A stretch of DNA of 57,083 bases, counting the filler, from Jimgerdemannia flammicorona (lineage: Eukaryota), in assembly GCA_003990765.1 (NCBI GenBank). It is 3 parts of 3 records of this genome, joined end to end, with 100 filler letters (N's around TTAATTAATTAA, not from the genome) between each part and the next. Parts side by side here need not be neighbours in the genome. Positions count along the whole stretch, not along the records: positions 1 to 18,964 come from RBNJ01002062.1; 2 more parts are not named here. One strand, 5' to 3'. The translations under genes were made by a program, and so were the position numbers. Every line of letters begins with the position of its first letter. The stretch's first letter is position 1. The notes under the pieces were generated by a model. It had not been told where the DNA came from, did not search any database, and saw only the letters and a list, made by a program, of their open reading frames with translations. This document shows positions 339 through 41,629 of the stretch, in pieces.

Positions 339-1680
339 AGAGTGCATATTCTGAGAATTTGTAGATCTAAGGATTAGGTATACAAGTGGTCATTTTTCAA
401 GCCTTCTGAGAGGTTCTTCAGACATTTTACTTAGTGAATTCAGTCTATATCCAGACCAATTACCACCCTTTGACTGTCAAGCGATTCCAGTAGAGACTGC
501 TACAATTATTTGGGATCATATGTCACACTAAGAGAATAAAATGTAGGCAACACTGGCGATTGAAAAAAGCACGAACTCTCAAACCCAAAAAAGATTTCTT
601 ATCATCATCAGAAAATGATTGATTGTGTGAATTAGATGTAGAGTAAGTTGAGGTATATATATGATGGAGACCGGTTTCAAGTTAAAGTATTGAACTTTTG
701 TATTCTGAGATTTCTTGTAGGAAGTGGTTATAGATCACTAAAATCATAAACATTCTAAAAAAAATAGGTACTGCACGTAAATAATGGTATAGTCATAATT
801 ATGATACCAGATCATTTCACATTAAGAGACCCTCAAGACCATCAGAGTATATACTTATTAAATGTATTATTACCCATTTTCATTTATGGATATGATGGGG
901 ATCTACCATTTCTACTATATCGCAGATTCTGTTTCCCAAGATCTCTGGAGCCATCTATGTTATACTGGGCATATTATTAATGATAGACCCCAAAATACCT
1001 TACAGGAATGAGTGCAGCCAATAGGCTACAGGAAGCTCAAATATTTGCCTTAATGATCAAGGGTCACTGACAAGTGGGTCATTAAGTGGACAAGTGGATT
1101 GGTGAATTTGTTGTCTATATATCCAGAGAGAAATAAAATAAAACCAAACATCACATTTATGGTTATTAATTATTTTCAAATCAATGACACACCTATCTAC
1201 TCGACTATTATGAGGATAGCGATCATTACATTATATAATCAGAAGTGTCACTATATATATTGATGGCTCAGAGGGTTTTCATGTTTTTGATGCTATAAAA
1301 AATAAATAAAAAATAATAAAATAAATATTATTCATTAATTTTTTATAAAGATAATTATATTAGACTACTATTAAATATATATTATAGTTTATTATATAAT
1401 TTATTTTTACTAAGAATTCTACTTAATCTTTTTACTATTGTAACGGTGACCCCAGAATGATGACATCAGCACTAGAGACAGCCTTTCCTTGCAAGTTACC
1501 AGATCGGAGCATAAGAAGATCATACAGTATATAAGATGAGCAATGATGACCAGCTGTGAGTCATTGTGACCACAGCATAAGCATCCTGAAGAATATAAAA
1601 GAAGGATCAAGGAACCACAGTAGCAGCAATCAACAAGAACCACCAATCTCAAAATAGCTCAAAGACTTACCACAAACAAA

Positions 1681-2508
1681 ATGCCTGCTGCCTGCCAAAC
1701 CTCAAGGTCAAGGAATTACTAAGATATCTCAGTCGAGAAAAGGATGTTCCAAGACATCAGAAGAGCCATGAGGATCTGCTCAAGAAGGACTCCTAGTGTT
1801 AACCTGGGTACTGTAGACCCTTATCACTTTATTCTCTACCACCATGAAATGGAAACAAGGATCACTATTGCTATCAAATGCCTCCAAATATGGCAGAAGT
1901 ATGAAATAGGAAACCTCCTCTGCCAGGAGTTCCCACAAGCCAGCACCCAAGAGCTATAAGATGCCACTCTCATGGATATATGCAAAACAAGGATAGCTAA
2001 AAAGATCTATCAGATCTTCAGGCATGCACCATGGTCAATCCCCAACTTAGAGTATGTTAGAGTCTCAGACTTCAGAGACCTATCATCTCACTGTATCAAT
2101 GTACTAGAAGCTAGAGTAACTACAGAAGCCCAGTCCACTATCACTCTCAACAGTGAAGAAGTAGAAGACTTCTGGTACTCTATTCTTCAGAACAATCCAG
2201 ACCAATTCCTACAAGGATTGATCTCAGTATTCCAAGACCTAAGCATCCAGGTTAGACCTCCCCAAGACCCCACATTTATTCTCTATTTTGTGGAAGAGAA
2301 CCTCATAGACTGGAGAGCTCCAGACCTTGTCCCTGATTTCTCCACTACAGCCAAATGTGATGATGTCATCAATGATGTCATCCCATGTGATATACTCAAA
2401 GCATGCAAAGTATGCGAAACACATGACCTACATGACGAATTCATGGATCTCATCTCCTTCAGTAATAATGATGATGAAGCCCCCATGATTCTGAACTTTC
2501 TGCTCTAA
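1681..2508 (+). pseudogene. LTR-encoded accessory ORF of unknown function (275 codons, two CAA>TAA stops)
   Basis: ATG 1681 to TAA 2508 in one frame. Stops at 1720-1722 and 1957-1959 are CAA in the 3' LTR copy. Homologous to 20942-21748. Confidence 0.85.
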
Positions 2509-2520
2509 GTTCTTTATTAC

Positions 2521-2684
2521 ACTAGATAATGCCAGCACCGGTATTCTCATATAACACTAAATAATGCCAGCACCAGTATTCTCATATAATACTAGATAAT
2601 GCCAGCACTGGTATTCTGAGGTGACGCGAAATTGTTCCAGTACTGGCATTTTGATGTGATAATAAATAATGCCAGCCCTGGAAC
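2521..2684. repeat. 35-bp tandem repeat / palindrome array in LTR U3 (also ~9768-9931)
   Basis: About 3 units of ACTAGATAATGCCAGCACCGGTATTCTCATATAAC plus 2 degenerate units. Each contains the dyad AATGCCAG-N2-CTGG(C/T)ATT. Confidence 0.85.
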
Positions 2685-2991
2685 TCAGTAGTTTTAGTTA
2701 TTGGAATTTATATTTAGCTTTATATCTTAGCAACCATTGAATTGTATTTTGTATAAATACCCCTCTTATTTCCTCTGAAATAAAGTCAGTTCCAGTTTCA
2801 CTTACATACACTTCCTTATAAGTAATCTAAGAGATAACAAGATAGTTAAAGATAAGAAGTTTGAGGACTATAAGATCTTGAGAAGACACTCCAATAAGAA
2901 CTTGCTTATAACAACTTGAGTTAGTCTAAAAGATATACCTTGAAGAGAATCTGGCATATTTGAAGGACTCAGCAACCACTATGTGACAACT

Positions 2992-3009
2992 TGGTGCCCA
3001 TTGGCTGGT
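2992..3009 (+). promoter_or_regulatory. Putative primer-binding site
   Basis: TGGTGCCCA... begins 3 nt after the 5' LTR; cognate tRNA not identified. Confidence 0.7.
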
Positions 3010-3017
3010 GATTCAAG

Positions 3018-6000
3018 ATGAATCCTCACTTTCAAGCTGAAAAACGAACAACCCCCACAACAACTACTCTGACTACAAGAGTCATCTCTACAAGAATTCA
3101 AGACAAGATGGAAATGCATCCCCTCACATTCTATAGATATACTACTGAAGAGTCAATTCTGACCTTCATTGAAGACTTTGAACAATTCACCACCATATGA
3201 GCCCTTGGTGTAGATGCTCAATTGGCCCTTCTACCAGTCAGCCTCAGAGGACCTGCCAGAGACAAGTTTAATACAGCCACCATTGCTGATGCTGGTACAG
3301 CCAAACTTGCCAACATGAAGATCTTTCTCAGAACAACATATTATACTGAAGAGATCAAGCAAGTTCTCAAGAATTAACTCAATACTATCTGCCAGAGACT
3401 TAGTGAAGATCTCAACTCATTTTATACCCGAATCTGCCACTAGATTGTCTTGGCTGGCTATGATGACTGCCTCAAGGAATAAATAGCAGATTCAACCTTC
3501 CTTAAAGGAGTTCACTCTGAAATTGCCCTAGCAATCTGGTCTATCCCAGCTGCACTGACCCTTGATCAGAAAGTGGTCTTTGCATAGAGATATTGGACTG
3601 CCAGACACTCTGCCGAATACTCAATGGAGAAAATAACTGGCATCAAGATGGAGCCATTAAAGCCAACTAGTATCTTACCTGCCACAGTTGTAAACAGACA
3701 ACCAACTCCACCTACCCCCAAGACAGCCAAAGCTGATCTAGTGGAAGAACTTGCCAAGCAGTTCGCCAAGATGACTGCACACCTTGGTGATGTTGTTAGA
3801 GAAGTCTGAAGTGCCAACAGGAGACCAGTGCAGAGATTTGCAGCTGCTACAGAAGAATACAATATCACATGCTTCAGATGTAGAGAAGAAGGCCATTATG
3901 CAAAGAGTTGTATGACCAAAATGAGATGCAAAGCCCAACCAAGTAATGCTAGCAGAACCAGAGAACAAACCAATGCAGTAGTCATCGAGGAGATCAGTGA
4001 CACTGATGACGAAGAATACTACAAGGAGCTCGAATTCTACCCTGCTACTAAAGGTACCAGAATCTGGTCCAAGCCCTATGACAAGAAGAGCAACAGCAAG
4101 CCAGTTGGAAGACCAAAGAAGACTCCAGCTGTCACTATTCAAAGCAAGACCCAATCCAAGGAGATTGATCAAGACATGGAGTTAGACAAAGCTGCCTGCC
4201 AAATTATCAAAGGCACTACTCCAGTCTTAGGAGAAAGCAAGAACAAGAAGGAACAGAAGCTGCACAAGACCAAGATCCACCAGTATGACATCTATAAGGA
4301 TCTCAAGGAACAGAAGGTCAATGCCACTTTTGGGCAGCTAGCTGAAGTCCCTGCCTTCAGACAGCAGTTGAGAGTAGGACTTGCAACTATTACCAAGAAT
4401 CAAGAGTACAAGATCATAGAAGCTCATAATGCACAAGAAGAATCTGAGAACTCAGGTGAAGAATCCAAAGACTAGTGCAAGACATCAGCCTATACCCCCT
4501 GCTAGATCGAAGACTGTATCTTTGATGTCATCATTGATACTAGTGCTGGAGGATGTCTCATGAGCAAGAAGACAATTGACTGCCTAGGTTGGGACATTGA
4601 AAAGTCCACCAAGATGGTCTATGTCATAGCAGACAGTACATGAGCTACCCCCCTTGGCAAAATCCAAGAAGTTTCCATCAAGATAGGAGGAGCTACTATC
4701 CCAGTAGACATGATTGTTATAAGTGCCACTAACTATAACATCCTCATTGGTAACCAATGGCTTTACAAGGCTAAGGCCATCATTGACCTCAATGCCCAGA
4801 AGATGCAGATCAACTATAGAGGAAGAAAGGTATGAGTTTCTATCAATGTCCACAAAGGAGTCCTGCCAGACATAGAGGAAGGAGATGAAGAAGATACAGG
4901 GTCTTTATGCACTCAGTGAATAAGAATAAGAACAAGACACCCAAGCTCACAGATGAGCAGTGATATAACAAGATCATCAATGGGTATGCCTCTCAAGGAA
5001 GATACCCCCATAGTACTAGAATGTACTACTCCGAACACCTGAATGACTGCTGATCCTGTATCAGTGAAGTCAGGAAAATCTGACAACAGAAACATGAGCA
5101 AGAAGCTGCTGAAGCAAAAAGGAAAGCTGAAGAAGATGACCAGCCCCCAGAGCTTCAAGCTGATAGTGACGATGAGGCAGAACAAGAATCAGACATCACC
5201 CTCAAGGTCAAGAAGTTTTACCCTGAAGCCAAGATCCCAGAATATAAGACTGAAGGAGTCATAAGAATAGATCTTGCCAGCATCCAAGATGCTACCCTTG
5301 AACCACAGACCACTACCCTACTTGGTACTGAAATTGGAGTCAAGTTGTCAGAAAACTATACTAGAATTATCAAGACTAGGAGCAGTCTGGCCAAAAGCAA
5401 AATCTCAGTTAAAGGAGGAGTAATTGACCCTGATTACACTGGTAAGATTTTTCTCATAGTCAGAAATTACAACCACACCACCCCCTTCAAAGTCAAGAAG
5501 CATAACAGGATTGACCAGATGCTGATCCACGAAATCAAGAAGCCCAAGATCATAGAAGCCACTGAACTTATCAAAACCAAGAGAGGAGAACAAGGCTTTA
5601 GATCTACTGGAAGAGGAGCCTATGCCACTACCAAGATTACTGAACTTAAGTATAAGAAAGACAAGGACCAGAATAAGTACACATATACCATTGGAGAAAA
5701 CTTTCCCCTAGAGGAACAACTTCTCAAGATCCTGTACCAGAATGAAGGAGTACTTGCTACAGACTTTAGAGATATCCACAATCAAGAACCCAAGTACTAC
5801 CATGAAGTTGACACTGATGATACCAAGCCTATTTATCAGAAAGCCAGACCCATACCACCTGTCTACAGAGAGTGGCTGCAAGCCAAACTCAAGGAAATAG
5901 AAGAAGCCGGAATCATCAAGCAAGCTATCAGCCCCTGGGCCTCACCCATTGTCCTTGCCCTGAAGAAAGGAAGCAAGCCTGGAGAGTTTGCACCAAGACT

Positions 6001-8320
6001 CTGCATTGACTACAGGAAACTCAATGCCATTACCAAGAAGGATAGGCAGCCCTTGCCAAATATTCAAGAAATCCTTACCACCCTTGGAAGCAAAGCCAAA
6101 TACTACACCATCTTGGATCTGTTCTCAGGCTTCCATCAGATCGGTCTCACTCAAGATATCAGTGAGAAATCAGCCTTCATCACACCTGATGCCACCTATA
6201 TCTATCTATAAATACCATTTGAAATGTGCAATACTCCAGCAAGTTTCCAGCGAATGATGAACAGAGTCTTCAGCAATGAGATAGGAAAATAACTCTTTGT
6301 CTATATTGATGATATGATTATCTTCAGCAACACTACACGGGAACATATCAATCACATACAGCTAGCCCTCAAGAGGCTCAAAGAGCATGGCCTCTACATC
6401 AAGCCCAAGAAATGCAAGTTTGTAGCTCAAGAAATTGCCTACCTAGGACATCTCATCAACCAGACTGGAATCCACACAGACCCCATGAAGATCGAGGCTG
6501 TTGCAGCCTACCCAAGATCCAGAATAACCACAGAAGTTCATGCCTTCCTTGGACTGGCCAGCTACTACAGAAGATTCATCAAAGGATATTCCAACATTGC
6601 AGCACCTATCTACAAGCTACTGAAGAAGGAGACTAAATTCGAATGGACCAAGGAGTACCAAGAAACCTTCAATGAACTTAAGACCAGGTTTACCCAAGCA
6701 TCCATCCTCAGAAGACCAGACTGGAACCTAGAATTTATCCTGCAGACAGACGCGAGTGCTATAGGACTTAGAGCAGTCCTAGCTCAGAAGAAAGATGGAC
6801 ATGAATATGTCATCTCCTATGTAAGCTGAGGTACTCATAGAGTGGAACAGAACTACAAGTCATACAAGCTTGAATGCTTAGTGGTAGTTTGGGCAGTAGA
6901 CAAGTTCCACTACTACCTAGCTGGAAAACACTTCACCATTCAAACAGACTATTCCGCTCTTGCCTGGCTATTCCACACTCTGAACCCCAAAGGAATATAT
7001 ACCAGATGGATCTACAGGCTGTAAGAGTATGACTATACTGTCAAGCACCACTCAGGAAAGATCAATACCAATGCCGATATACTCTCAAGAATACCCCGAA
7101 ACACTCCCATCAAGACTACTCAACATGAATAAGGAGCTATACTATAGATTAATCAGTTATCTTGGGCAGCGAAAGATGCCCAACCACCTCGAACCCTGGA
7201 CAATCACCATTATCAACTGGACTTGGAAATAGTTTGAATTAGACAATACTACACTCAGAAAAGGAGGAAAGCTAGTAATACCTGAATACAAGAAGTATCA
7301 AGTAATGAAGAAAATATATGAGCAAGGATACTTAGGAGGAACCAACACATACAATAAGACAAGAAGAACCATGTGGTGCCCCAAGATGGAAGAAGACCTG
7401 TGCCAATTTGTCAAAGGGTGTGACAAGTGCCAAAAACAGAAACAAGATTAGTAAGACCAGGCACCTGGGTCATCAATAATTGAGCCTATCTCCTTCTACC
7501 ACATCATAATGGATATCATTAGACCACTACCAGTAACACTATCAGGAAACTGCTATATTATAGTTATTGTAGACCTCTTCACCAAATGGATAGAGGCAGG
7601 AGCATTATAAGAAGCCAATGCCCTCTCTATAGCTGACTTCTTATACTGAGAAATCATCTGCTACTACAAGACACCAAAGCAAATCACAACAGACTGCAGC
7701 ACAGAATTTGTCAATGGATTCCATAAGATAATATATCAGAAATACAAGATCCAGCATATCAAGACCACTGTGTACCACCCTCAAGGAAATGGACAGACAG
7801 AGAGAACCAACAAGACCCTCAAGAACATCTTAGCGAAGATCTCAGAGACATATGAGAATTGGGATAACTATCTCCCAATTGTCCTCTCTGTTCTATGAGA
7901 CATATAGTCACAGAGCACACATTTTACCCCAAGAGAGCTGCTCTTCGGAGAAGAAGATTCTGATGGAACCTCAGCTACAAATCTAGACCTAACTTGGAGA
8001 TGGATTGATGCAGAAATCCAGAAACTACACCAAATCAGGAAGAAGGCTGAAGATTACATTACCAAGTTACAAGTGCTGACAAGGAAGAATGTGGAAAAGA
8101 ATCACAAGGCCCTAGAACTCATCTGAATCAGAGAAAAGGTTCTACTGTATCGAAATATGGTAGAAGCCTCATGGTCATGAAAACTGAAACCCAAATAGGA
8201 AGGACCCTTCTATATACAAGATATCAAGGGAACTATCTTCTAGCTTAGAAAAATCTCAGGGACCATACTGTCTACCACAGTATATAGGAACAGACTCAAG
8301 AAGTACCATGAACCTATATA
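3018..8320 (+). pseudogene. gag-pol of element A, with many stops and some frameshifts
   Basis: Zinc knuckle CFRCREEGHYAKSC; protease IIDTSAG (~4530); RT SPWASPIV, RLCIDYRKLN, LDLFSGFHQI, VYIDD; RNase H FILQTDAS; integrase CDKC, YHPQGNGQTERTN and a GPF motif. End coordinate approximate. Confidence 0.95.
5200..5612 (+). pseudogene. Trimeric dUTPase domain between protease and RT
   Basis: Motifs RSSLA, GVIDPDYTG, RIDQ and RGEQGFRSTG, in frame with the downstream RT (ORF 5345-6211). Confidence 0.92.
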
Positions 8321-8675
8321 AGAGAAGCAAAACATAATGACTGCCTGTGAGGTTCTAATCCATGAATCATAACAGTATGTCCTGTGACCAGCAGGCTATC
8401 TGTCTGGACCATTCTCTAAGAGATACGGCACTGGCAACTACTCATCCATGAGACTTTCGAAGTCAGAGGAGTTCGAACCATCTACTGATTGGTCAAGATC
8501 AGAATCAGGCCCTTGCTCTATATGAAGGGAGCGACTCTTCACCATCATGCCAAAATATAAAGGGAAGATGCCAGCCCATAAACACCAGTTTTCAATCCCT
8601 TGCCAGAGGTTATAGGATCAGCAAATTTTTCAAGACTAGACCAATGAATAAGGATGCTCAGGAAGATCCTTATTC

Positions 8676-8685
8676 AGGAGAAAGA
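8676..8685 (+). promoter_or_regulatory. Polypurine tract of element A
   Basis: AGGAGAAAGA directly before the 3' LTR TG; preceded by a perfect 11-bp stem (8645-8655/8666-8676). Confidence 0.8.
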
Positions 8686-10211
8686 TGTAATAGTGACTCT
8701 AGAATAATAACATTAGTACCGGAGACAGTCTTTCCTTACAAGTCACTAGATCGGAGCACAAGAAGATCATACAGCATATAGGATGAGCAATGATGACCAA
8801 CTGTAAGTCATTGTGACCATAGTATAAGCATTCTGAAGAATATAAAAGAAGGATCAAGGAACTACAATAGCAGTAACCAATAAGAACCACCAATCCCAAA
8901 ATAGCTCAAAAACTTACCACAAACAAAATGTCTGCCACCTGCCAAACCTCAAGGTCAAGGAATCACCAAGGTATCTCAGTTGAGAAAAGGATATTCCAAG
9001 ACATCAGAAGAGCTATGAGGACCTGCTCAAGAAGGACTCCTAGTGTCAACCTAAGTACTGCAGACCCTTATCACTTCATTCTCTATCACTGTGAAATGGA
9101 AACAAGGATCACTATTACTACTGAATACCTCCAAATGTAGCAGGAGTATGAAATAGGAAACCTCCTCTACCAGGAGTTCCCACAAGCCAGCACCCAAGAG
9201 CTACAAGATACCACTCCCATAAATATATGTGAAATAAGGATAGCTAAGAAGATCCATCAGATCTTCAGACATGCACCATGGTCAATCCCCAACTTAGAGT
9301 ATATTAGAGTCTCAGACTTCAGAGACCTATTATTTCACTGTATCAATACACTAGGAGCCAGAGTGGTTACAGAAGCCTGGTCCACTATCACCCTCAACAG
9401 TGAAGAAGTAGAAGACTTCTGGCACCCTATCCTTCAGAACAACCCAGACCAATTCCTGCAAGGATTGATCTCAGTATTCCAAGGCCCAAGTATCCAGGTT
9501 AGACCTCCCCAAGACCCCACATTTGTTCCCTATTTTGTGGAAGAGAACCTTATAGACTGGAGAGCTCCAGACCTTGTCCCCAATTTCCCCGCCACAGCCA
9601 AATGTGATGACATCATCAATGACATCATCCCGCGCGACATACCTGAAGCATGTGAAGTATGCAAAATGTGTGACCTACATGATGAATTCGTGGATCTCAT
9701 CTCCTTCAGTGATGATGATGATGAAGCCCCTATAATCCTGAACTTTCTGTTCTAAGTTCTTTGTTACACTAGATAATGCCAGCACTGGTATTCTCATGTA
9801 ATACTAGATAATGCCAGCACCGGTATTCTCATGTAACACTAGATAATGCCAGCACTGGTATTCTGAGGTGATGCAAAATTGTTCCAGCACTAGCATTTTG
9901 ATGTGATACTAAATAATGTCAGCCCTGGAACTCGGTAGGTTTAGTTATTGGAATTTATATTTAGCTTTATATCTTAGCAACCATTGAATTGTATTTTGTA
10001 TAAATACCCCTCTTATTTCCTCTGAAATAAAGTCAGTTCCAGTTTCACTTACATACACTTTCTTGCAAGCAATCTAAGAGATAACAAGATAGTTAAAGAT
10101 AAGAAGTTTGAGGACTATAAGAACTTGCTTATAACAACTTGAGTTAGTCTAAGAGATACACCTTGAAGAGAATCTGGCATATTTGAAGGACTCAGTGACC
10201 ACTATGTAACA
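8686..10211 (+). repeat. 3' LTR of element A (1526 bp)
   Basis: Colinear with the 5' LTR except for a 24-bp deletion between ATAAGA microrepeats. Differences are almost all transitions. Confidence 0.95.
8928..9755 (+). pseudogene. LTR-encoded accessory ORF, 3' LTR copy (275 codons, one TGG>TAG stop)
   Basis: Single frame from ATG 8928 to TAA 9755. The only stop (9138-9140) is TGG in the 5' LTR. Confidence 0.85.
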
Positions 10212-10349
10212 CTATATATAATCTCTCTACTACAACCTCTCTACTGCAATCTCTTCATCTATAACTTCCCTACTACTGCTGCCATGATCTCTTCGCTGAT
10301 CTCTAATGAACCCTCACCAAGCTCCTCTCCCTCTCTGCTGTTAAGACCC

Positions 10350-10700
10350 TTTTGACATAAGCTTTGTGCTTTTTATAACATTGCAACGAATGTCTCCGAC
10401 GATCACGTGCTCTGTCGACCGTCCGTCCAGGTGCACCTCCGCACCATGGTGCGATATTACAACGGCTACCGCTTTCCTTCTACTCAAGTCTCGTGTGTCT
10501 TCAACATAAACACCTGTCTGGAATATCTTCAGGTGAGCGAGCAAAGCTACAGATTGAATTTTTATCATCATTATTCTCACTGCCGCTGCTGCTGTAATCC
10601 GGTCTTGTCAGATTTAATGAGAAAAAGACTCCAACTCGGAAGTATCCGAAATATTGGCTACAGATGCTCGCCGTCCTTGAGAGGGTTTCTGACCTTGAAT
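10350..10700 (+). pseudogene. Possible fragment of an AAA-ATPase-like (PD-(D/E)XK nuclease-associated) gene
   Basis: Peptide MVRYYNGYRF...VFNINTCLEYLQ followed by a GTGAGC donor, with YNIATNVS upstream. It resembles the YNGYxF motif of that family from memory only. Confidence 0.35.
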
Positions 10701-14093: not shown

Positions 14094-16100
14094 ATGAAAT
14101 TCGGCAAGTACCTGGAAGAGCGCAAGTCCCGCCTGCCGGAAGGCTGGGCAGACAAGTGTATTGATTATACAAAGCTCAAGCTGTTTCTCAAGACAACCGT
14201 CTACCTGCACTCCGTCAAACTCGACCCTACCCAAATGACCTGGGACTCAAAGGATCAACCCTCCTTCGCACAGTTGCTATCCGAGCGTCTGGCAAAGCTG
14301 CAGATAAGCGAAGCTGAATTTATCAACATGCTCGACGCTGAGGTGCTGAAATCTTCCAACTTCTTCATCGAGGAATGCGTGCGACTCGTCGCGGAACACG
14401 ACAAGATAGTGGCTGTTCGCGTCGCTGACGGGACGTCAACTAATTCGGCCAGCACCGCAGAGAAAACAGCGCAACTTTTGCAAGATGTCGTGACTCTCGA
14501 AAGATTCGTGTTCCTCAACTACACTGGCATCATCAAGATCCTCAAAAAGAGCGACCGTCACTCGGGTCTGTCCATCTCCGACCCTTACCTTTTCCGCGTC
14601 TCCTCCCTTCCCCTCGTCCGCGCTGAAAAACTCTCGGTGTTGAAGCAGTCTCTCATGAACGAATTCAATTATCAGAACCTTCATCCCAACAACGTCTTCC
14701 GGCCCAGCGCTACTCCGACTCCTTTATCCGCGCGTAGATCACCCTTTTCTCCGACTCTGCTCCCAGCCTCCACTTTCCCACCGACGACCCTTCTCCCGAA
14801 CCAAAAAGTATTGGTCTCCCTCTCCGGTCCGCACGGCACCGACATCATTGGCGCGGTCCTCTCCTGTGTCGCGCAGCACAACTGCGACATTGAAGATTTC
14901 ATGTTCTCTCGCCTCTACCACAACGTCACCTTCGGCGTCCTCATTACGTTCAAATTCCAGAACGTCGCCATTTTCCAGGACCTCGCCGCCCAAGCCCGCA
15001 AATGGGATGCCACTCTTACCTTCGACGTTCCAGACATGCAGGCCACGGAGCCAGGCACCAAAGCCCAGCTCACCTCCAACGGCCAGATCTACCTCCCCTC
15101 TTCGCTCGACGAGGCTCCCTACGAGAATCGCGTCAAATACACTGCCACAGTCTTGAACCAAAACGGCCTCACGCCTGGATTCCTCTTCGAGTGGACTCAG
15201 CTGCTGCTGGCGAACCGCATCAGCGTAGAGAAGATGGCGCGTCTGAATGAAGGAATGATCTCGTGCGCGGATTACAAGCTCTCCATGCCACGCGATGTCG
15301 ATATGGAAAAGTTAAGAGAGAAGCTGTTCGATTTGAGTAGGAGCCATGGAACTGATGTGGCGTTGCAGCTGAACGATGTATTCAGGAAGAACAAGAGACT
15401 GGTAGTATTCGATATGGATTCAACGTTGATTCAGCAGGAGGTTATTGATGAAATTGCAAAGTATGCAGGAGTGGTTGGCGAAGTGGCGGTAGGTGCTTTT
15501 TTTTTTACTGTTTGAAGATTCTTCTCCGTTGAAATTTTCTCGTCGTTTGAGGTTCCCACATACCCTCCTCTCTGTTTTCTTATGTCTATTCGCCAACCTT
15601 CTTGACCATACCATTGCCATCGGGTATTTCTACATCTTATCCAAAATAGAAAATTACGGAAGCGGCCATGAACGGCGAAATTGACTTTAAGGAATCCCTC
15701 CGTCGTCGCGTCGGTCTTCTGCGCGGGACAAGTGTAGACGTACTCCAAACAGTTAAGGCCAATTTGACGTTTATGGAAGGCGCGAGGTTCCTATGCCGCG
15801 CCTTGAAAAAGATTGGGTTCAAGCTTGCGGTCATCAGCGGTATGTATGTAAGAGGTATCTTGGCGAGGAATATGGTTTTGGTAGGCCTTTGAATCATCAT
15901 TTGACGCGTTTCTCTTACTCCGGGATTGTTATGATGAAAGGTGGCTTCATGCCTCTTGCTCTCCACGTCAAGTATGAACTTGGTCTAGATTACGCTTTTG
16001 CGAATCAGGTGTGCAAATGTAATTTTACGTTATCTCGCCACTGTGAACTTTGTTCCAATCTCAACTTTAATAATCATGTATTTTCCTTCCTTCCCCCTCC

Positions 16101-18964: not shown

Positions 18965-19064
18965 NNNNNNNNNNNNNNNNNNNNNNNNNNNNNNNNNNNN
19001 NNNNNNNNTTAATTAATTAANNNNNNNNNNNNNNNNNNNNNNNNNNNNNNNNNNNNNNNNNNNN
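18965..19064. other. Assembly gap with artificial TTAATTAATTAA spacer
   Basis: 44 N + TTAATTAATTAA + 44 N. Confidence 0.99.
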
Positions 19065-20298
19065 TCAAGAGAGTTCTACTAGCCAAAGATGACTAAGGAT
19101 ATCAAAGACTTTGTGGCCTCATGCGAGATGTGCCAAAGGTTCAAAAGTGGTAACAAGCTACCAGCAGGACTCCTGCAACCCTTGCCTATCCTGAGTCACA
19201 ATTGGGACCAGATTGCAATGGACTTCATTGTCCAACTCCCCAAGACCAAGGTAGGATGGGATGTCATCGTGGTATTCGTGGACCGCCTAAGTAAACAAAC
19301 CCATTTTGCACCCACCAAGACCACTGCTACAGCACCAGAGATTGCCGAGATCTTTCTCAACTAAGTATTCAGGCTACATGGCATGCCTAGCACCATTGTA
19401 TCTGACCGAGATGCCAAGTTCACAAGCAACTTCTGGAAGACATTTTTCTCTCTCCATGGAACCAAGCTGAAGTTCTCTACTGCCTACCACCCTCAGACTG
19501 ATGGTCAAACCGAGCGAACCAACAGGACCCTCAAACAGATGCTTAGCATCTTCTGCTGTTACAAGCAAAATAACTGGGACAAGTACCTAGCCCATGCTGA
19601 GTTTGCCTACAACAACAGTCAGCAAACCTCCACAAAGAAGACTCCATTCTTCCTGAACCATGGTCAACACCCAAGGACCCCAAGTACCTGCGAAATCAGC
19701 AGTCCCAGCAGCCCAAGATCTGGCCGAAACCATTTCTGACCTTACGCGAATGACAAGAGATGCTCTCATAGAAGCACAAGACTACCAGACCAAGTACACG
19801 AACTTGAAGCGAAGAGAAGCCTCCTACAATATTGGTGACAAGGTCATGCTTAGAACAGACCACCTCCACCCAGACACCCTGGCACAACAACTAGCCAAGA
19901 AACTCCGTGCTAGAAGAATTGAACCATACAAGATCATGGAAAAAATCAGCGAAGTCAACTACAAGTTGCAACTTCCCCACAATATCCGAGTACACCCAGT
20001 ATTCCATATCAGCCAATTGGTGGACTACCATGAGAACCCATTTCCTGAGCATACAGTTCCACCACCACCCCCAATTAGGATCAATGATCATGAGGAATTC
20101 GAAATTGAGGAAGTACTTGACCACAAGATCCGAAAATATCCCAAAGCAGTCAAGCGCTTTTTCCTGATCAAGTAGAAGGGTTACCCCACCCATGATGCCA
20201 CCTGGGAAAAAGAAGAAGTCCTGAAGAATGCACATGAAGCCCTCCAGGACTACATGGAAACACTCACTCCCCAGCAAAGAAAGGAACTACAGCTCTAA
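19065..20298 (+). pseudogene. Integrase plus chromodomain of element B
   Basis: CEMCQRFK, IAMDFIVQLP, IVSDRDAKF, YHPQTDGQTERTN, VHPVFHISQL; chromodomain EEFEIEEVLDH...FLIK*KGY...DATWE. Confidence 0.93.
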
Positions 20299-20941
20299 GC
20301 ATAGGAGCACACAGCAAGCAGAAGGATACCACATATTTTTATCTGGAAATATAAAATACTGAGCATTGCGAAAAAAGGAACACTATGGATAACTAACAAG
20401 AAGATACCCGAACAACAGAACAATCTAGTACAGTATAGCAAAATGCATTTGAACAACCCTATTTCACGCCATCTGTGTCATCTCCGCTGGATGATGACAG
20501 ATGCTTCATGTGAAACTTAGGAAAGCTGACAATGTCGAAACCAGTCTAAGTCCATCCATGTGACAGATATTGTTACTAAAGAATTGCCTCGGATTACAAG
20601 AAAGTCTATTTCTGAGAGGTTCGAACCCCCAGCCACGACAATGGGAGCCCTCACCTTAGACAAGGATGGTCAGTCCTTGTAAATGCACCAATCAGACAAA
20701 AAAAAAGTGGACCAAGACCTGTTAACTCTGTGTAACCACAGACGGGTGACAAGATCTTTGAAATCAGGATTTCCTCATGTGACCAGCACATGCTCCGCTT
20801 ACAGCACAGGTCATGCATTTTGCCAGAAAGTATGACCAAAGGAAGATCACATCAGATGGGTGAATAAGTATAAATACCCAAGACAAGAATACCCCGCAAC
20901 TCTCATCCCCCTTTCCCTCACAAAGAAAAGACAAGACAAGA

Positions 20942-21748
20942 ATGCCTGCCACCCGCCGCCAATCTGCCCGCCGTAGCCGGCCCCTCCCAAGCCAGGTTGA
21001 CCGCCTCTTTGGACACATCCAAGTTGCTATCCAAGGAAGGAACTGCCACTCAGAGGCCCTTGACCTCTCCCACCAGGACCTAGGACATTATGTCCTCAAC
21101 CACCGTGAAGTCATTGACAGAGCCTACCTTGCCACCAGCCACCTAGAGATTTGGCATGAATACGAGATTGGCCATCAACTCCTCCAACGTGCAAAGGACC
21201 TGCCTACAGACCAAGTCTCTGACTGGACTCACCTAGACAGGCATGAGCAAAGACTTGCCAAGAAGGTCCATCAAATCATGCGCCATGCACCTTTTGCGAT
21301 TCCCAACCTCAATTATGTACAACTGAAGGACTTCCAGAACCTCTCTTTCCCTGAGGTCAATGAACTGGAGATCAAGGTAGCCCAAGAAGCCAACTCCTGG
21401 ATCACCCCCAAGTCTACCGACTGCGAATCCTACTGGAGCCCCCTCCTGAATGACAACTCTGACCAATGGCTCCAAGGCCTCTCTGACCTCTTTGAAGGAC
21501 CACCTATTCGAATGGATATTCCCAGGTATGAAGATCAAGAGCCCTACTTGGATGGCCCCAACTGCATCAGATGGAGAACCCCAACACCAGCACAAAACCC
21601 AGTATGAGAACCATTTGCAGACCTCATTGACTTCTCCATCCTGGACATCAAGCCATCAGTAACCACCCCCCCTGCCCCTGAGCAAGATTCCCCACCTTTC
21701 TCTCCCCTGGTTCTCAATTTCTCAATCAACGAGGACATTGATTTCTAA
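20942..21748 (+). pseudogene. Accessory ORF homologous to the element-A LTR ORF (268 codons; one TGA at 21605-21607, probably CGA>TGA)
   Basis: The frame continues past the TGA as EPFADLIDFS...PLVLNFSINEDIDF*, matching DLISFS...PMILNF of element A. TATAAATA at 20869. Confidence 0.85.
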
Positions 21749-21759
21749 GGGGGGAAGGA

Positions 21760-22591
21760 TGTAACAGAATGAACAGATGGGATGCGAAGAGTGACAAACG
21801 ACGAACGACGAACGACGAATGACGAATGATCACGTGACCCGGCGATGACGTCATCATACGATCGAGCACGACATATGAATAACGATGCAAATGAACGATG
21901 CAAACAAACGATGTGGAAAACGATATTCAGCTTATCCCCAACAATCGGCGCCACAGTAACAGTTGCCACAGTTGCTGATCATTGCCTAGTAATTGAGGTC
22001 CTGATCACAAAGTTGTTTTTGCCAAAAACCACCTGACAAAGATCGCAATTACAAACCTCATTATAGTTACCAAATTAGTCACTCATACTTAGTCAGAAAT
22101 CGTGGACCAACTTGTATAAATACCCCCCAGTTTCCATCTGAAATAAATCAGTTTTAGTTCAGTCCTTAATACAAGAATCAAGTCTCCCCCACACACACAC
22201 ATTCCCCTGAGTCTTAGTAATGACATCTAAGTGACTCTAGTGTTTCTGACTAAACTCCAGAAACCTAGCTAACTTCTGCCAGAACTGAGACCGGTATATA
22301 AATCACCAAAGACTTAAGTAAACCCATTGAACCTGAATTCCAAGGCGAATTCAGTCTGTGCACAGCAAAGAACAAGACCCTCGAAATAGGGTACAAAAGA
22401 AAGACCTTTGAAAGATAAGGCAAACCAGAAAGACCTTTGAAAGATAAGGCACTGCCACTACAACTACTTAAAGCGAGCGCTTCCTCAACTGAAGGCTTCT
22501 TGGTACACATTGTGTACTAAGTCCCTAAGTAATAGTCCACTTCCCTAATTATCCTAAGGATAAGAGAGGGATAGAAGTGAGAGTTATTACA
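21760..22591 (+). repeat. 3' LTR of element B (832 bp)
   Basis: TGTAA...TTACA termini after the PPT. Contains CACGTG and ATGACGTCAT palindromes, TATAAATA (~22114), AATAAA (~22142) and a ~25-bp duplication (~22399-22451). Confidence 0.88.
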
Positions 22592-25500
22592 TCCAGTAAA
22601 GGCATGCCTCCCAGAAGAATGCTATCCCATCTCCACATCACCGGGTCCCATGCCCTCTCCCCCTCATCCCCTTGCCAGCGAATACCAATGTGGTGTGCCC
22701 CCTTGGCTATCCCCCACCAGAAGCCCTTATATCTCAGTTGCGCAGTATTCTGAAGCCCAACTAATGAAAGAAGATCACCAGTCAAGCCTCTAGGAGATGT
22801 CCGCCTCTCCCATATCTTCTACAGCAGAGGGACCCAGCCCCCTCCATGCAACTCCACCACCCTCTTCAGCCACCAAACTCTCAAGCAGTATAGTCTTTTG
22901 GAGAAGTCCACCAGCCCCAGACCACCTCTCACCACCAGTATAGACAAAGTCTCCCAACCAATCTGACTCCGTCTGCCAGCCCAAATCCATCCCTTGGCCA
23001 CCTTCACCAATCTCTTCACTACCCAGGCTGGGAAGTCCAGATGATAGGCCAAATACTACAGCTTCAGCAGCCAGTATACATTCAAAATTGAGATCCTTCC
23101 TGCCAGAGAGAAGTGTCTACCCCCCCAACCCCGCAGGTCCTCCTCCCAAATTCCAATTCTCTGCTCCCACCACAGCCTGGGCAAAACAGACCCATAGACC
23201 GACAAATAGATGCCCAAATACCACACTGCCTCTTCAGTGGGGACAATTGTTCCAATAACTTCTCCGCCCACCAAGCCATTGCCCAGCACCATTGTTTCAC
23301 ACTTGTGCCAATTCAGCTTCACCCCAGAGTTCTCCTCATACCACTCCACTGTCTTTCGGAGCTCCTCGACATCTGCAGTCACTCCCAAACCAACCACCAT
23401 ATTGTCCGCAAAGGCTCCAACCTTCCAGCCAATGCCATAGATAGAGAGCCCCACGATCTTCTGCCGAATACTGTCCATTAGAGGTTCCAAGGAAAGAGCA
23501 TACAAAATGGGGGACAGTGGGTCCCCCTGGGGCACTCCCCTACCCAGAGGGAAAGCCACCCCTTGATGCCCATTGCACATGAGCGCAGCCCTACTCCTTT
23601 CCAGTAGGCTGACCATTGCTGACTGAAATGGGCCCGGAACTCCAATTCTATCTAATACTTTCACCAGTCAGACTCACTATACCCTGTCATAAGCCTTCTC
23701 CTGATCCAAGAAGACAAGATGCCCATCTAGTCCACAGGCTCAAGCACCTTCAATAACTCCATATACCCAGGCTGTGCCATCTCTAATAAGTCGACCCCCT
23801 ATGAAGCCCCTCTACTCAACACCCACAATTTGCTGGGCTACCTTCTGTAGCCTTGTGACCACCACCTTAGTCACCAACTTCCTGTCCATATCTAGTAACA
23901 TTATCGGCCGCCAGTTCTTCCAATCCTCTTGCCTTCCCTTGTTTTTATAAAGCAGTATCACCAGCCCAAGGTCTTGCTCCCCCACCCATCTCTCTGACTG
24001 CAATATAGAGTCACACAGTGCTGTCAACTCCCCCAATATGCCCAGAACTCCAACCATTCACTTCCAGAAATCCCAGGGGAGGCCATCCTCCCCAGGCGCC
24101 GTACCCAAGGCTGTCACAGCAAGAACCTGATGGATCTCATCCTCCTTTACAGGCATCACCAGGTCACTTAGTCCCTCAGCTTGTGGTGGGTGCCAATCTT
24201 CTAATGTTTGGTCAATGGCTGTAGCATCCACCCCACCCTCCTCCTCACTCCACAATCCACTCCATCATGCCTTTAGCGTTTCAAGGATGTCCTGTACACT
24301 ATGCACTAGTACATCATCTGAGCCAAGTACCCCTTCCCACCGCTGCTGTACCCTTTTTGCTCGAAGTGTCCTTGTGAGAAACTTGGAAGGCCTCTCCCCT
24401 TCCTCCAGCCCCTGCCAATGAAGCCATGCCACCAGGCCTTGCACCCTTGACTCTTCCTCTTCCCACAGCACCTGATGTAGTTCCCCAACCTCCATCCTCA
24501 CCCTTGTTATTCTCCAATCCTCTTCTCCCTCTACTGCCACCAGTCTCGCCCACTCCTCTAGGAGCCTAGCCAATCTAGTAGAAGCCCAATGCACTTTCTG
24601 CCTTCACTGCTTCCCAGCCACTCTGCCAGCCTCACTCCAATACATCTTGGCCATCTCTTTCATCCTCATCTACCGAAACCCAATCGCAGCCCCTTCCAGC
24701 TGCCAATTTGTCACCTTCAGCTGAATGTCTTTTGCCCACTCCTCCCACCAGGCCTCATCATCCAACAAGGAGGAATTTAGGTATCAATATCCAGGCCCAT
24801 CTCTACTTCCCCCAAAATACCCCTATCCCAAGAGGCCCCAGTGATCTGACCATGGACACCATTCTACCTCTATTACCTTCCAAACATCTCAGCCCCAATA
24901 GTTGGCTGTCAGAATCCAGTCAATCCTTGTCCCCAGACCTCCAGCCCAATGCGTATATACCCTCTTGTCCCCCCAGTGCTCCCTACCAGCATCCACCAGT
25001 GCTCCTAGCCTTTCAACCTCCTCCCACATCGCTAACCCCCCACTCCTGCTCTCCACACCCCATCCTCCATCAGTTCTATCTAGCCATACATCCTGAACCA
25101 TATTGAAATCTCCTCCAAGCATATCCAACCTAGTTTCAGTAAGGATCCCACTCTCCAGGAGCCCCTTCACCCAATCCACACACTCCCCCCACACAGCAGG
25201 GCAGTAACAGGAGCCAACAGTAACCAGCTCCCAACCTGCACGAATCCACTCCCCCCAGACCAGTCTCTCCCCCCAGCTCCTCACATCCTTTATCTCCCCT
25301 CTGCCTTTCTGAACCAGAATCCTGACCTTGCTGTTCCAAGTTGCCATACCACCCCATTCCTTAGTCCATTCTATCCTATCAGCATCATCCTCGCACCTGA
25401 CATCCTGCAAGAGGAAGAGATCGGCCTCCAATCCCTTCAACCAAATAAAAATGTTCCTGCATCGAACCATGCCCCTCAGCCCATTCACGTTCAAAGAAAA

Positions 25501-27667
25501 AATGTTGGTTGTACTATTCATAGTAAAATACAGTTTGTTCTCAATCAATCCCTACTGCTCCATGCCCCTCTCCTCCTGCACCATGTCCAGATTATGTTCA
25601 GCCATCACCTCCTCCTCTTCAGCCCTCTGAGCCTCCAGTCCAGCCAACAGCTCATTCATCTCCTCATCAGCCTTCTCCTCAAACTCCTCTCGGTACTTGA
25701 TGCAAGCCTCCTGCCAAAGCTGCAACCCATGATGCCTGTTCCAACAGTACTCAGCCTTCTCCCCAGCGACCACCACCAACTCCACCTCCCTCTCCTTATC
25801 CACCTCATACCCTTCCTCCTCCAGATACACCGTGAGAATTTCCACCTTCAGCGCCATCGCCACTCCTTCTCCCTGCAAAATTCTCATCCAGTGCTCATCA
25901 CCTATCCCATGCAAGTCTACCTCCCCCAGCTCTTCTGCTGCCAGGTTATTCATCATCCGGCCCATCCAAAGTAGGTTTCCCACCTCCTTTCCACCAGGGG
26001 TCGCCGGCCTCTCTCCATCCAGCATCGTGGTGTCAGCTCCTGTACTCGCGTCCTTATCCCACACCTCCGGGACATCCACCAGTTCCTCCTCTCCTGCCGC
26101 CACTACTTGGTCTCCATCCAATACCTCCAGAATGCTAAATTTCACCTGCTGGGTCCCCAGCATCATCACGTCCTCCCCAGACTTGTTCCTGGAAGCCGGG
26201 CCATACCTGATAAGAGGGGAAGGGGTGGGGGAATTCTCTCAGACTTCATCCCAAACCTCCAAGATGCTGTCAGCATATAGGTCACTAATCTCCGCCTCCT
26301 TAGCCTTCCCTGACTTTGCCCCATCGTTCCCACTCCTCTCACCAGCCCAGACACTCACTCTGGCCCCTTCTGCACCCATCTTCATGCTCACATCCTTCTG
26401 TGGTCCACCCCCCAGCTTAGCCAGCAGATCCTTCTGCCTCTTCTGCTCCTGAGCCCTTTCCTACTGTACCTTGTCCACTCGAATCCTCTTTCCATCCACT
26501 ATCTCCAGGAGCATCAACTCCTTGAAAGTCTTCCAGGCCTTAGCTCGCTATTCCACAGCCCCATCCAGCTCCTCCAGCACTTCCAATAAATCTTCCTCCT
26601 CTTCTTCACTTCCTTTCACCCACATTACCTTGCACAGGAAAGCTCCCCAGACCAACACCGAAGGCCAGTCCCTCGTCTTCCTGGTAGCCTCTTTCCCAGC
26701 CAGCCGAATCCTCACATCCACATCCCCAGTCCTGAGCGTGGTCCCTTCCCAGACCCTGAATCTGATATCTACCACCTCTCCATACTCCGCCATGACATCC
26801 TCTACTCTCTTCCTCATCTCCATTGCCATCACTGTGGGTACTCCTTTCACCAGCAGTTGGACCACCCTTGGATCCCATTTCAGACACCTTGCCATTGGAA
26901 TACATACCTCCCCAACCACCAACCCAACCTTCAGCACCTCCTCCAGTAGTTCAACCTCCTCAAATCTCACCTCCACCCTCTCCAGTCCCTTTAGAAACTT
27001 CACTGAAGCCACTCCCACCACCTGCTTAGCAATAAGCCCCAACACCATTTTTGCTGTCACCGCTAAGCCCTGGAAGCACAGTATGACTGTGAATGCTGAG
27101 ATCAACTTCTTGAGTAACGGAGCCACTGCCAGTCCCATTACACTATCTGCCAGGTTCCCGGGCCTCATGCCCTTCCCACCGCTCGGCTCACCATCAGCAG
27201 TCCCATCTAGATTTTTTTTCCAGATCACCTATCATACCCCCATCAGCAGTCCCTGCCCCAGCCACTACCCCCCCAGCTTCACTCCTATGGCCCACTAGAG
27301 AGGTACCCTCAAGAGGTTGCTACCTGGAAGCCACCACCGGTACCTTCCCCCCTCTCAGCCAGCTCTCCAGTCCAGCTCCCTGCCGACCTCCCTTCACCTT
27401 CTCTGCAAAGCTCACCCTGCCAGACCCTTGATCTCCAGCTCTGCCCCCTCCTCCACTGCAGCCCCCTGCCAGCAGGCCCCTCATACTTCCCCCCAAGCCA
27501 GGGCCTCTCCCCACTTACTGCCATTCAAATGCTCCAGGGCCACCCTGCCCAGTATACACCTCCAGATACTCTTTGGTCACCATGATACTAGTAGCTTTTC
27601 TCCAGAAACTGTGTCGAAAGTGTTGCCAAAGGGTTGTATAACCTGAATGTTACCAGAGAAAGATATC
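22592..27667 (-). mobile_element. L1/Tx1-type LINE copy 1 (ORF1 ~27590-25552; ORF2 from ATG 25521), interrupted at its 3' side by element B
   Basis: APE endonuclease IFSLNVNGL, LLQD, GGDFN, RIDWI; RT NWRPI, DQEKAYDRV, GVPQGDPLSP, FADN. 5' boundary approximate. Confidence 0.93.
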
Positions 27668-38024: not shown

Positions 38025-38124
38025 NNNNNNNNNNNNNNNNNNNNNNNNNNNNNNNNNNNNNNNNNNNNTTAATTAATTAANNNNNNNNNNNNNNNNNNNN
38101 NNNNNNNNNNNNNNNNNNNNNNNN
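38025..38124. other. Assembly gap with artificial spacer
   Basis: 44 N + TTAATTAATTAA + 44 N. Confidence 0.99.
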
Positions 38125-40952: not shown

Positions 40953-41625
40953 TTATGGGCTGACAATTTCTTGAAGTCTGAGACTCTAATATACTCTAAG
41001 TTGGAGATTGACTAAGATATATGTCTGAAGATCTAATAGATCTTTTTGGCTACCCTCAATTCATATATATCCATAGAGGTGTTATCTTATATCTCTTAGA
41101 GGCTGGTCTGAGAGAATTCCCAATAGAGAAGATTTCTTATTTTATATTTCTATCATATCTAGAGATATTTGGTAATAGTAGTAATCCTTGTCTCCATTTT
41201 ATAGTAGTAGAGAGTAAAGTGATAAAGATCACCAGTACTCAAGTTGAGGCTAGAAATTCTTCTAGTGTAAGTTCTCATGGCTCTTCTGATGTCTTGGAAT
41301 ATTCTTTCTTAGATTGAGAAGTCTTGGTAGTTCCTGGATCTTGAGATTTGGTGAACAATAGGTATTTTGTTTATAGTGAGTCTTTTGAACTATTTTGGAA
41401 TTTTGTGAGTCTTGTTTGAGTTACTACTACTGTGGTTTTTTAGTTCTTCTTTTATATTTCTTGAGATGTCTATCTTGTAGTTATTATGACTTATAATTAG
41501 TTATTATTACTCATCTTATAGCCTGAGTGAGTCATGCTATATAATCTTCTTATGCTCCAATTTAGTGACTTATAAGGAAAGACTGTCTTCTGTAATGATG
41601 TCACTATTTTGAGATTACTATTACA
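40953..41625 (-). mobile_element. Reversed partial LTR of the element-A family, carrying a fourth truncated accessory ORF copy (41365-40953)
   Basis: Reverse complement starts TGTAATAGT... like 8686 and encodes FQDIRRAMR and RVAKKIY*IFRH...NLEYIRVSDF. Cut by LINE copy 3. Confidence 0.88.
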
Positions 41626-41629
41626 ATAT

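Follow-up and report, generated by a model that had tools for sequence, protein, structure and literature searches.

Jimgerdemannia flammicorona (Endogonales, Mucoromycota) is an ectomycorrhizal symbiont rather than a pathogen. In a stretch of 57,083 nucleotides from its genome assembly GCA_003990765.1 (the window hereafter, that is, the whole stretch of DNA that was analysed), two long terminal repeat (LTR) retrotransposons of the Ty3/Gypsy type, referred to here as elements A and B, carry the same kind of accessory gene, an open reading frame (ORF) of 275 codons in A and of 268 codons in B. An original prediction, made from the sequence alone, had described this gene as LTR-encoded, under selection and of no recognised family. 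The analysis reported here leads us, with high confidence, to consider the frame a real, selected gene of transposable elements (TEs) rather than a chance frame. The gene probably lies in the U3 region of both LTRs in A and inside the element, next to the polypurine tract, in B.

Copies of the accessory gene in the window

Both LTRs of element A contain the ORF, at positions 1681-2508 and 8928-9755 of the plus strand, each time as the predicted 275 codons followed by TAA. The 5′ copy is interrupted by TAA at codons 14 and 93, both of which read CAA in the 3′ copy, and the 3′ copy is interrupted by TAG at codon 71, which is TGG in the 5′ copy. The three stops fall at different codons and each comes down to a single transition (C>T or G>A), exactly as had been noticed before. 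Transitions account for all 93 differences between the two copies of the ORF, and the ratio of the proportions of non-synonymous and synonymous differences (pN/pS, 0.49) matches a random-transition control (median 0.545, range 0.34-0.81, with 175 of 500 values at or below the observed one). This indicates neutral decay since the insertion and makes the pair uninformative on selection.

The ORF of element B (20942-21748, plus strand) has one internal TGA at codon 222. It is 37-39% identical to the A copies over 214-231 residues, and the first 214 residues align without gaps (tblastn within the window, E 1e-39 to 1e-43), in agreement with the colinear, ungapped homologue of about one-third identity that had been proposed. 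The gene is also common to two distinct Ty3/Gypsy lineages, as had been claimed: the integrases of A and B are 42% identical over 69 residues, and a chromodomain was seen in B only. The fourth copy announced on the minus strand turned out to be a truncated, heavily mutated A-like LTR (40972-41628, minus strand), which consists of the LTR start, the TATA box described below as TATA1 and the first ∼139 codons. Positions 1-640 of the A LTR align to 41628-40972 (minus strand) with 74% nucleotide identity, and the protein matches that of A at 59-60% over 134-139 residues, with many stops; the start codon is mutated from ATG to ATA, TATA1 is kept, and the upstream flank contains neither pol nor a polypurine tract. 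Since this copy begins at the same base as the LTRs of element A, it fixes independently the 5′ boundary of the LTR upstream of the ORF.

Organization of element A

The 5′ LTR of element A spans positions 1439-2988 (plus strand, 1550 bp, with TGTAAC...TGTGACA ends) and the 3′ LTR positions 8686-10211 (plus strand, 1526 bp). They are direct repeats with 89% identity over 1550 aligned columns, differ by one 24-nt indel, and 145 of their 147 substitutions are transitions. The repeats begin with TGTAAC or TGTAAT and finish with ACA, and a 4-nt target-site duplication, CTAT, flanks the element at both ends (1435-1438 and 10212-10215). A sequence resembling a primer-binding site, TGGTGCCCATTGG (2992-3004, plus strand), begins 3 nt past the 5′ LTR and is presumably complementary to a tRNA 3′ end, and the polypurine tract AGGAGAAAGA (8676-8685, plus strand) adjoins the 3′ LTR. 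Between them, Pfam recognises gag (CCHC), protease, dUTPase, reverse transcriptase (RT), RNase H and integrase at 3810-8250 (plus strand), with many stops and in the order zf-CCHC, RVP_2, dUTPase, RVT_1, RT_RNaseH and Integrase_H2C2, which is the Ty3/Gypsy order. Thus, element A has all the hallmarks of Ty3/Gypsy membership, namely TG...CA LTRs, primer-binding site, polypurine tract, target-site duplication, gag zinc knuckle and pol order. Its dUTPase domain (5084-5650, plus strand, Pfam E 2.5e-22) is located between protease and RT.

The candidate promoter of the accessory gene in the 5′ LTR is a TATA box, TATA1 (TATAAAAG, 1594-1601, plus strand), 87 nt upstream of the ATG at 1681, and the 3′ LTR has the same arrangement on the plus strand (TATA1 at 8841, ATG at 8928). 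The TATA1 of B (TATAAATA, 20869-20876, plus strand) lies 73 nt upstream of the ATG at 20942 and is internal to the element. In L001, the one related locus that a scan of metagenome DNA returned, TATA1 is found at 296 and the ATG at 376 (contig coordinates). A TATAAAWR motif is therefore present 72-87 nt upstream of the start codon in five of five DNA copies (A 5′, A 3′, B, L001 and copy 4), against a background of 56 occurrences on both strands of the window, or ∼1 per 2 kb per strand. Moreover, A and L001, whose proteins are 38-46% identical, share an A-rich leader immediately before the start codon with 96% identity over 29 nt.

A second block (TATAAATACCCC...CTGAAATAAA) is found downstream of the ORF in both A and B, in DNA that is otherwise unalignable between them, and reads TTGTATAAATACCCC, ∼10 nt, CTGAAATAAA and TCAGTT. 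In the 5′ LTR of A it occupies positions 2752-2784 (plus strand), comprising a further TATA box, TATA2 (TATAAATA, 2752-2759), and AATAAA (2779-2784); in the 3′ LTR, TATA2 is at 9999 and AATAAA at 10026, and in B the block is located at 22115-22147. We read it as the putative core promoter for the genomic RNA, in which the poly(A) hexamer coincides with the start site or immediately precedes it; the block would then mark the U3/R border. This layout is also known from mouse mammary tumour virus (MMTV), Rous sarcoma virus and human T-cell leukaemia virus, whose poly(A) signal belongs to U3 and is hence missing from the genomic RNA at its 5′ end (PMC12789967). In A, the block is preceded by tandem repeats of a 35-nt unit (2515-2681 in the 5′ LTR, plus strand; 2.9 close copies, then diverged ones), which lie between the stop of the ORF and TATA2 and look enhancer-like, as is typical of U3 enhancers. 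Because the ORF (1681-2508) is situated between the LTR start at 1439 and TATA2/AATAAA at 2752-2784, it falls in U3, and the motifs make it probable that the accessory gene of A combines its own promoter with a U3 position. An entire ORF within U3, as in MMTV sag, was found in A only, with the U3/R border placed from the motifs.

Other short sequences recur as well. In L001, the motif GTCAGGCGGAAC occurs at 172-183, upstream of TATA1, and at 1482-1493, in the LTR past the ORF. Two further boxes, one reading CATGTGA/CACGTGA and one similar to TGACGTCA, are seen repeatedly close to the beginning of the LTRs in A, B and L001. All these boxes are possible shared regulatory sites.

Element B and locus L001

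The integrase (H2C2, core and SH3_Tf2-1) and the chromodomain of B were recognised by Pfam at 19083-20298 (plus strand), the chromodomain being read through a TAG at 20173, while the N runs at 18965-19064 either conceal the 5′ part of the element or mark its loss. The stop codon of the accessory ORF (TAA, 21746-21748) overlaps the polypurine tract AAGGGGGGAAGGA (21747-21759, plus strand), which is followed by a probable 3′ LTR (21760-22592, plus strand, TGTAAC...TTATTACA) with TATA2 at 22115 and AATAAA at 22142. We placed the end of this LTR at 22592 because TTATTACA mirrors the LTR start as an inverted terminus and because another repeat family begins there. A similar arrangement is seen at positions 1250-1261 of L001, where the stop overlaps AAGGAGGGAGGA, followed by T and then TGTAAT. 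The junction of stop, polypurine tract and TGTAAY is thus present in both of the B-type DNA sequences, the same tract-TGTAAY junction opens the 3′ LTR of A, and the nucleotide match of L001 to B stops exactly at it. After TGTAA, B reads CAGAATGA, and the same octamer occurs in the A LTR 8 nt further in.

Since the ORF of B stops at the polypurine tract and TGTAAC follows, the gene would be internal, between pol and the 3′ LTR, and we regard an internal rather than LTR-borne gene in B as very likely. A sense ORF between pol and the polypurine tract was found in B, where pol ends at 20298, and in L001, but not in A, where the ORF lies past the tract; likewise, B and L001 have the layout of a gene 3′ of pol with TATA1 upstream of the 3′ LTR, as judged from the motifs. 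The idea of an LTR-encoded gene consequently stands for A, where the ORF is in U3 of both LTRs, but most likely does not hold for B, where the ORF ends at the polypurine tract that precedes TGTAAC. The same cassette is found on either side of the polypurine-tract/LTR boundary in the two lineages, which means that either the boundary crossed the gene or the cassette moved; exchange of the cassette between lineages is plausible.

A protein family under purifying selection

We found ∼14 relatives of the accessory protein, all on environmental contigs and several of them intact. A word-seeded search with the 3′ copy of element A as query returned five relatives among 156 candidates, and a profile search 12 matches among 8000 scored candidates. 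With B as query, HMMER was run exhaustively against 1.84 billion representative proteins and gave five matches of 138-342 aa, with no longer fused or host form of the protein among them. To these, the metagenome DNA scan added locus L001 alone, and a scan of viral contigs produced 66 pattern matches and no relatives. The database matches all lie on environmental contigs, 0.6-4.8 kb long, from JGI or ENA, and none of the 12 profile matches has an NCBI or UniRef source. An intact copy of the gene, which was expected to exist somewhere, is represented by relatives of 271, 291, 325 and 342 aa. Three subtypes can be distinguished: an A-type (for example the intact protein of 271 aa), a B-type (the intact 291-aa frame on L001 and the 342-aa protein) and a third type of 325 aa. 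To the databases searched, this family is new, and it seems confined to Endogonales-like fungi.

Synonymous divergence between A and B is saturated (pS 0.76-0.79). For B and L001, the ratio of non-synonymous to synonymous substitution rates (dN/dS) is 0.24 overall, falling to 0.12-0.16 for codons 60-215 and rising to 0.63 in the tail, so that the selection proposed in the original prediction, for which a value near 1 had been named as contrary evidence, is borne out. Moreover, pN/pS for this pair is 0.41 in frame versus 1.04 and 1.49 in the other two frames, the differences at the three codon positions number 81, 60 and 122, and at the DNA level the ORF alone can be aligned (69% identity) and the flanks cannot.

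Features of the accessory protein

The N-terminal motif MP-x-x-RR...PLPS (MPxxRRxxxRRSxPLPS) is basic and kept in all three subtypes. The first 20 residues contain 2-4 Lys or Arg, and the charge of the first 40 is +5 to +8 in three of the four intact relatives examined and +1 in the remaining one (P0007). The net charge of the four proteins is −20 to −28; their last third is acidic, and a hydrophobic segment is absent, in line with the predicted lack of a transmembrane segment (top 19-residue Kyte-Doolittle mean of 1.07). Conserved motifs are found in the core (W-x-EYEIG, AKK-x-HQ-x-F-RH-x-P and DNPDQ-x-LQGL) and in the tail (F-x-D-L-I-x-F and P-x-x-L-N-F). A reading of DLIxF as a clathrin box was ruled out by eye, the closing acidic residue not being conserved. 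AlphaFold models show a helical core of ∼135 residues (∼20-155) with predicted local distance difference test (pLDDT) scores of 60-90, followed by a disordered tail below 50.

As anticipated, the protein belongs to no recognised family, without a match in Pfam, PDB sequences or fold libraries. In Pfam, the three window copies gave sub-threshold hits only (ATG5_HBR, E 0.077; VraX, 0.18; Apo-CIII, 0.0067), and a profile search of PDB sequences gave no match at E ≤10. With the low-confidence models, the best results were E 0.73 in Foldseek against PDB, Z 4.4 (none ≥5) in VIA-align against 48,161 chains and E 0.029 in BFVD; in the ESM Atlas, the best feature score of 0.83 and the best template modelling (TM) score of 0.33 were both in the chance range, and a further Atlas query with the host protein yielded nothing. 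At a mean pLDDT of 52.5-53.5, these missing matches do not show a new fold.

RNA evidence and proposed mechanism

Of the listed sequencing runs that contain parts of the region, none is on record as RNA and two, X1 and X2, bear the label 'RNA?'. These two represent RNA because their contigs carry 15 listed spliced joints (GT..AG or CT..AC) over host genes. ORF-like sequence is present in these contigs, for example over 404 nt corresponding to 8994-9397 with 52 differences and over 350 nt corresponding to 9057-9398 with 35 differences, and many of the listed differences bring back a G or C at positions that are A or T in the window. Parts of gag-pol that remain uncovered in X1 and X2 are no evidence of silence.

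The explanation that we favour is that of a self-contained cassette made of TATA1, a short A-rich leader and the ORF, with the 3′ end supplied by the AATAAA of the LTR. TATA1 would drive a monocistronic mRNA ending at this AATAAA, the transcript ends being those that we infer from the motifs. In A, each LTR, any solo LTR included, would be a promoter-gene-terminator unit giving an mRNA of ∼1.2 kb, and in B and L001 a 3′-coterminal subgenomic RNA would start from the internal promoter. The protein, we infer, would be a nuclear factor that regulates the element's own promoters in trans, possibly as a feed-forward activator like foamy-virus Tas. We put forward the full explanation, cassette and Tas-like regulator together, as a tentative one, and the activator function on its own is rather doubtful. 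A basic N-terminus together with an acidic tail rich in bulky hydrophobics is the composition of acidic activators, and it is this resemblance that makes us favour a Tas-like activator over a role in counter-silencing or in RNA handling.

Several observations weigh against this explanation. The window holds no intact accessory ORF, and all the intact relatives come from environmental contigs of 0.6-4.8 kb. The two AlphaFold models are poor (mean pLDDT of 52.5 and 53.5), no DNA-binding or other described domain was found in the protein by Pfam, PDB and fold searches, and the acidic tails with F-x-x-L would equally fit Atg8-binding or export signals. X1 and X2 consist of contigs only, which give presence without transcript starts, ends or strand. 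The summed word depth in X1 is 373-2456 in the LTR bins (8319-10450), 0-61 in the gag-pol bins and 2.7-543 in the host gene bins, and in X2 it is low in the LTR bins (5.6-31); since contig depth cannot rank genes, presence alone was taken from these values. Furthermore, some RNA contigs cross the two LTR edges into unlike sequence, with loose ends at 8701 and 10211, so that read-through RNA could account for the cover. Finally, the LTR start of B was placed from the polypurine tract and TGTAAC together with L001, as the window does not include a 5′ LTR of B, and a second TGTAAC at 20731, upstream of TATA1, provides an alternative LTR start, although no polypurine tract adjoins it.

If this second TGTAAC were the true start, the copy of B would also lie inside its LTR and the tract and TGTAAC past the stop would be a relic. 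The distance of 138 nt from 20731 to TATA1 is indeed similar to the 155-nt gap in A; however, the nearest purine run ends 23 nt before 20731 instead of adjoining it, the junction of stop, polypurine tract and TGTAAY is kept in L001 and marks the end of its nucleotide match to B, and it is with the sequence past 21760 of B that the LTR start of A has CAGAATGA in common. We thus consider an LTR location in B decidedly unlikely. As to the function of the protein, a counter-defence factor acting against host silencing (RNAi, DNA methylation) or against a restriction factor, in the manner of Bet or Vif, would suit TEs that are heavily attacked, as shown by the 145 transitions among 147 LTR differences and by the depletion of CpG in the TEs. 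Expression from every LTR would be appropriate for a factor needed in quantity, and the lack of a known fold would be that of a fast-evolving antagonist. Nevertheless, no similarity to any known suppressor was found, purifying selection on the core is fairly strong (0.12-0.16), unlike the diversifying pattern usual for antagonists, and the window copies were mutated regardless, which leaves this role an unlikely one.

A role in RNA handling, as a Rev/Rex-like export or translation factor or an RNA chaperone whose Arg-rich N-terminus binds RNA and whose tail is an export signal, could explain why the basic N-terminus MPxxRRxxxRRSxPLPS is conserved in three subtypes, and the tail of B (F-A-D-L-I-D-F-S-I) fits the spacing of leucine-rich export signals. 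This spacing is not kept in the A-type proteins, though, merely 2-4 Lys or Arg are present within the first 20 residues, and no pair of spliced and unspliced RNAs needing such a factor was seen; we judge the proposal very unlikely. The most improbable of these possibilities is that the ORF is a passenger, either a captured fragment of a host gene or a frame without a role in the life cycle of the element. The absence of an intact copy from the window and the open function are compatible with it, but the scan of 1.84 billion representative proteins gave five relatives, none of them a longer host form, both the promoter and the position by the polypurine tract or in U3 are conserved across lineages, and the dN/dS of 0.24 between B and L001 does not fit a frame without a role. 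Beyond the self-contained cassette with a Tas-like regulator, one may speculate that the A-type LTR is an autonomous gene, that solo LTRs, left behind when recombination removes the element, keep expressing a family-wide 'public good' (activator or anti-silencing factor) and that the gene entered the LTR by a shift of the polypurine-tract/att boundary. This scenario seems improbable to us as it stands; if true, retroelements would have, in a boundary shift over a pre-existing internal accessory gene, a route to gene duplication and dispersal that has not been described so far.

Comparison with known systems

Extra genes in LTR retrotransposons and U3-encoded genes in a few retroviruses are already known. 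The closest parallel to A is MMTV sag, whose whole ORF lies in U3 and is hence copied into both LTRs; MMTV also has extra promoters beyond the classical LTR promoter that serve sag, and a poly(A) hexamer just upstream of the genomic start (PMC12789967). However, Sag comes from a vertebrate retrovirus and is a membrane protein of type II; the accessory protein, from a fungal host, has neither a hydrophobic segment nor a Pfam match; with a top 19-residue hydropathy of 1.07 and no Pfam family at the cut-off, it does not resemble a Sag-type transmembrane glycoprotein. Compared with MMTV, element A also has no env. In HIV and SIV, the coding sequence of nef reaches into U3 of the 3′ LTR (PMC12789967). 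This overlap is partial and nef is expressed from spliced RNA, whereas in A the whole ORF and its own TATA box are in U3. Nef is a myristoylated, membrane-associated protein.

For B, the foamy viruses offer the nearest layout: their accessory genes tas and bet follow the structural genes on the 3′ side and are driven by an internal promoter that precedes the 3′ LTR, and both promoters are activated by Tas (PMC12789967). The B-type succession of pol, TATA1, ORF, polypurine tract and LTR is foamy-like in its sequence layout. On the other hand, no sequence or fold similarity of the accessory protein to tas/bet products was found, as far as the low-confidence models allow, and in A the cassette sits in the LTR itself. 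The sense aORFs of plant LTR retrotransposons are, like the gene of B, extra ORFs between pol and the 3′ LTR, and their function is open (PMC7264820). They belong to another kingdom, no homology to them was found, and the excerpts of PMC7264820 make no mention of ORFs inside the LTR.

Among fungi, brtn of the Boty-like elements of Botrytis cinerea is an extra gene of open function in a Ty3/Gypsy element, but differs in being antisense, going by a title cited in PMC8365987. A survey of fungal LTR retrotransposons mentions additional domains alone in the available part (PMC3248453), and elements of bdelloid rotifers capture extra ORFs (PMC5408684). In the open-access papers and preprints, to the extent that their text was accessible, we found no description of a complete gene, together with a promoter of its own, within the LTR of a retrotransposon. 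Should the cassette be expressed in the way proposed, each LTR copy, including solo LTRs, would supply the protein, and the 'active' load of a TE family would have to be counted differently in a TE-swollen genome. The pair of A and B is a natural experiment in which the gene, on either side of the polypurine-tract/LTR boundary, shows how U3 gains coding capacity.

Mutation pattern and other features of the window

In 3-kb bins across the whole window, the ratio of observed to expected CpG is 0.0-0.2 in TE regions versus ∼1.0 in host genes. In the LTR pair of element A, 57 of 103 single transitions are of the CpA/TpA type, and a loss of CpG is suggested by 11 paired CA/TG sites. The divergence of the TEs is a signature similar to repeat-induced point mutation (RIP) or of methyl-cytosine deamination in a Mucoromycota fungus. 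Classical RIP does not seem to be the cause of the stops: despite the CpA/TpA-type transitions, the indices of element A ((CA+TG)/(AC+GT) of 1.4-1.5, TpA/ApT of 0.8) are unlike those of classical RIP.

Besides elements A and B, the window contains two copies of an element of ∼4.9 kb (22592-27567 and 31336-36276, 74% identical), in which two minus-strand frames were noted, one RT-like (23056-23667) and another long one at 24889-25551. We read the element by eye as a non-LTR, LINE-like element; its plus strand is extremely G-poor (GC skew of −0.3 to −0.5). A third integrase-like stretch (28663-29025, plus strand), 36% identical to the integrase core of B over 121 residues, lies in a very AT-rich, decayed region. 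Runs of 44 N are found at 18965-19008, 19021-19064, 38025-38068 and 38081-38124, forming two pairs, each split by 12 bases.

Direct repeats of ∼2.4 kb (43665-46076 and 54627-57083), which share 71-91% identity over a distance of 11 kb from each other, lie on either side of gene-like ORFs. These repeats were considered as further coding LTRs and discarded, their ORFs being host-gene-like and the whole looking like a segmental duplication instead. A long, imperfect tandem array at 47336-48600, with units 27-57 nt apart and nine 168-nt copies at 61-87%, is situated inside an open frame with repeated ...DALDIASP... peptides, and the frame after it (48402-49547) resembles a von Willebrand A domain by eye. 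Among the host genes, an exon of an SPX-ACT-phosphoserine-phosphatase (14094-15485) is 100% identical to an NCBI protein assigned to J. flammicorona and 81% identical to a protein of an Endogone species.

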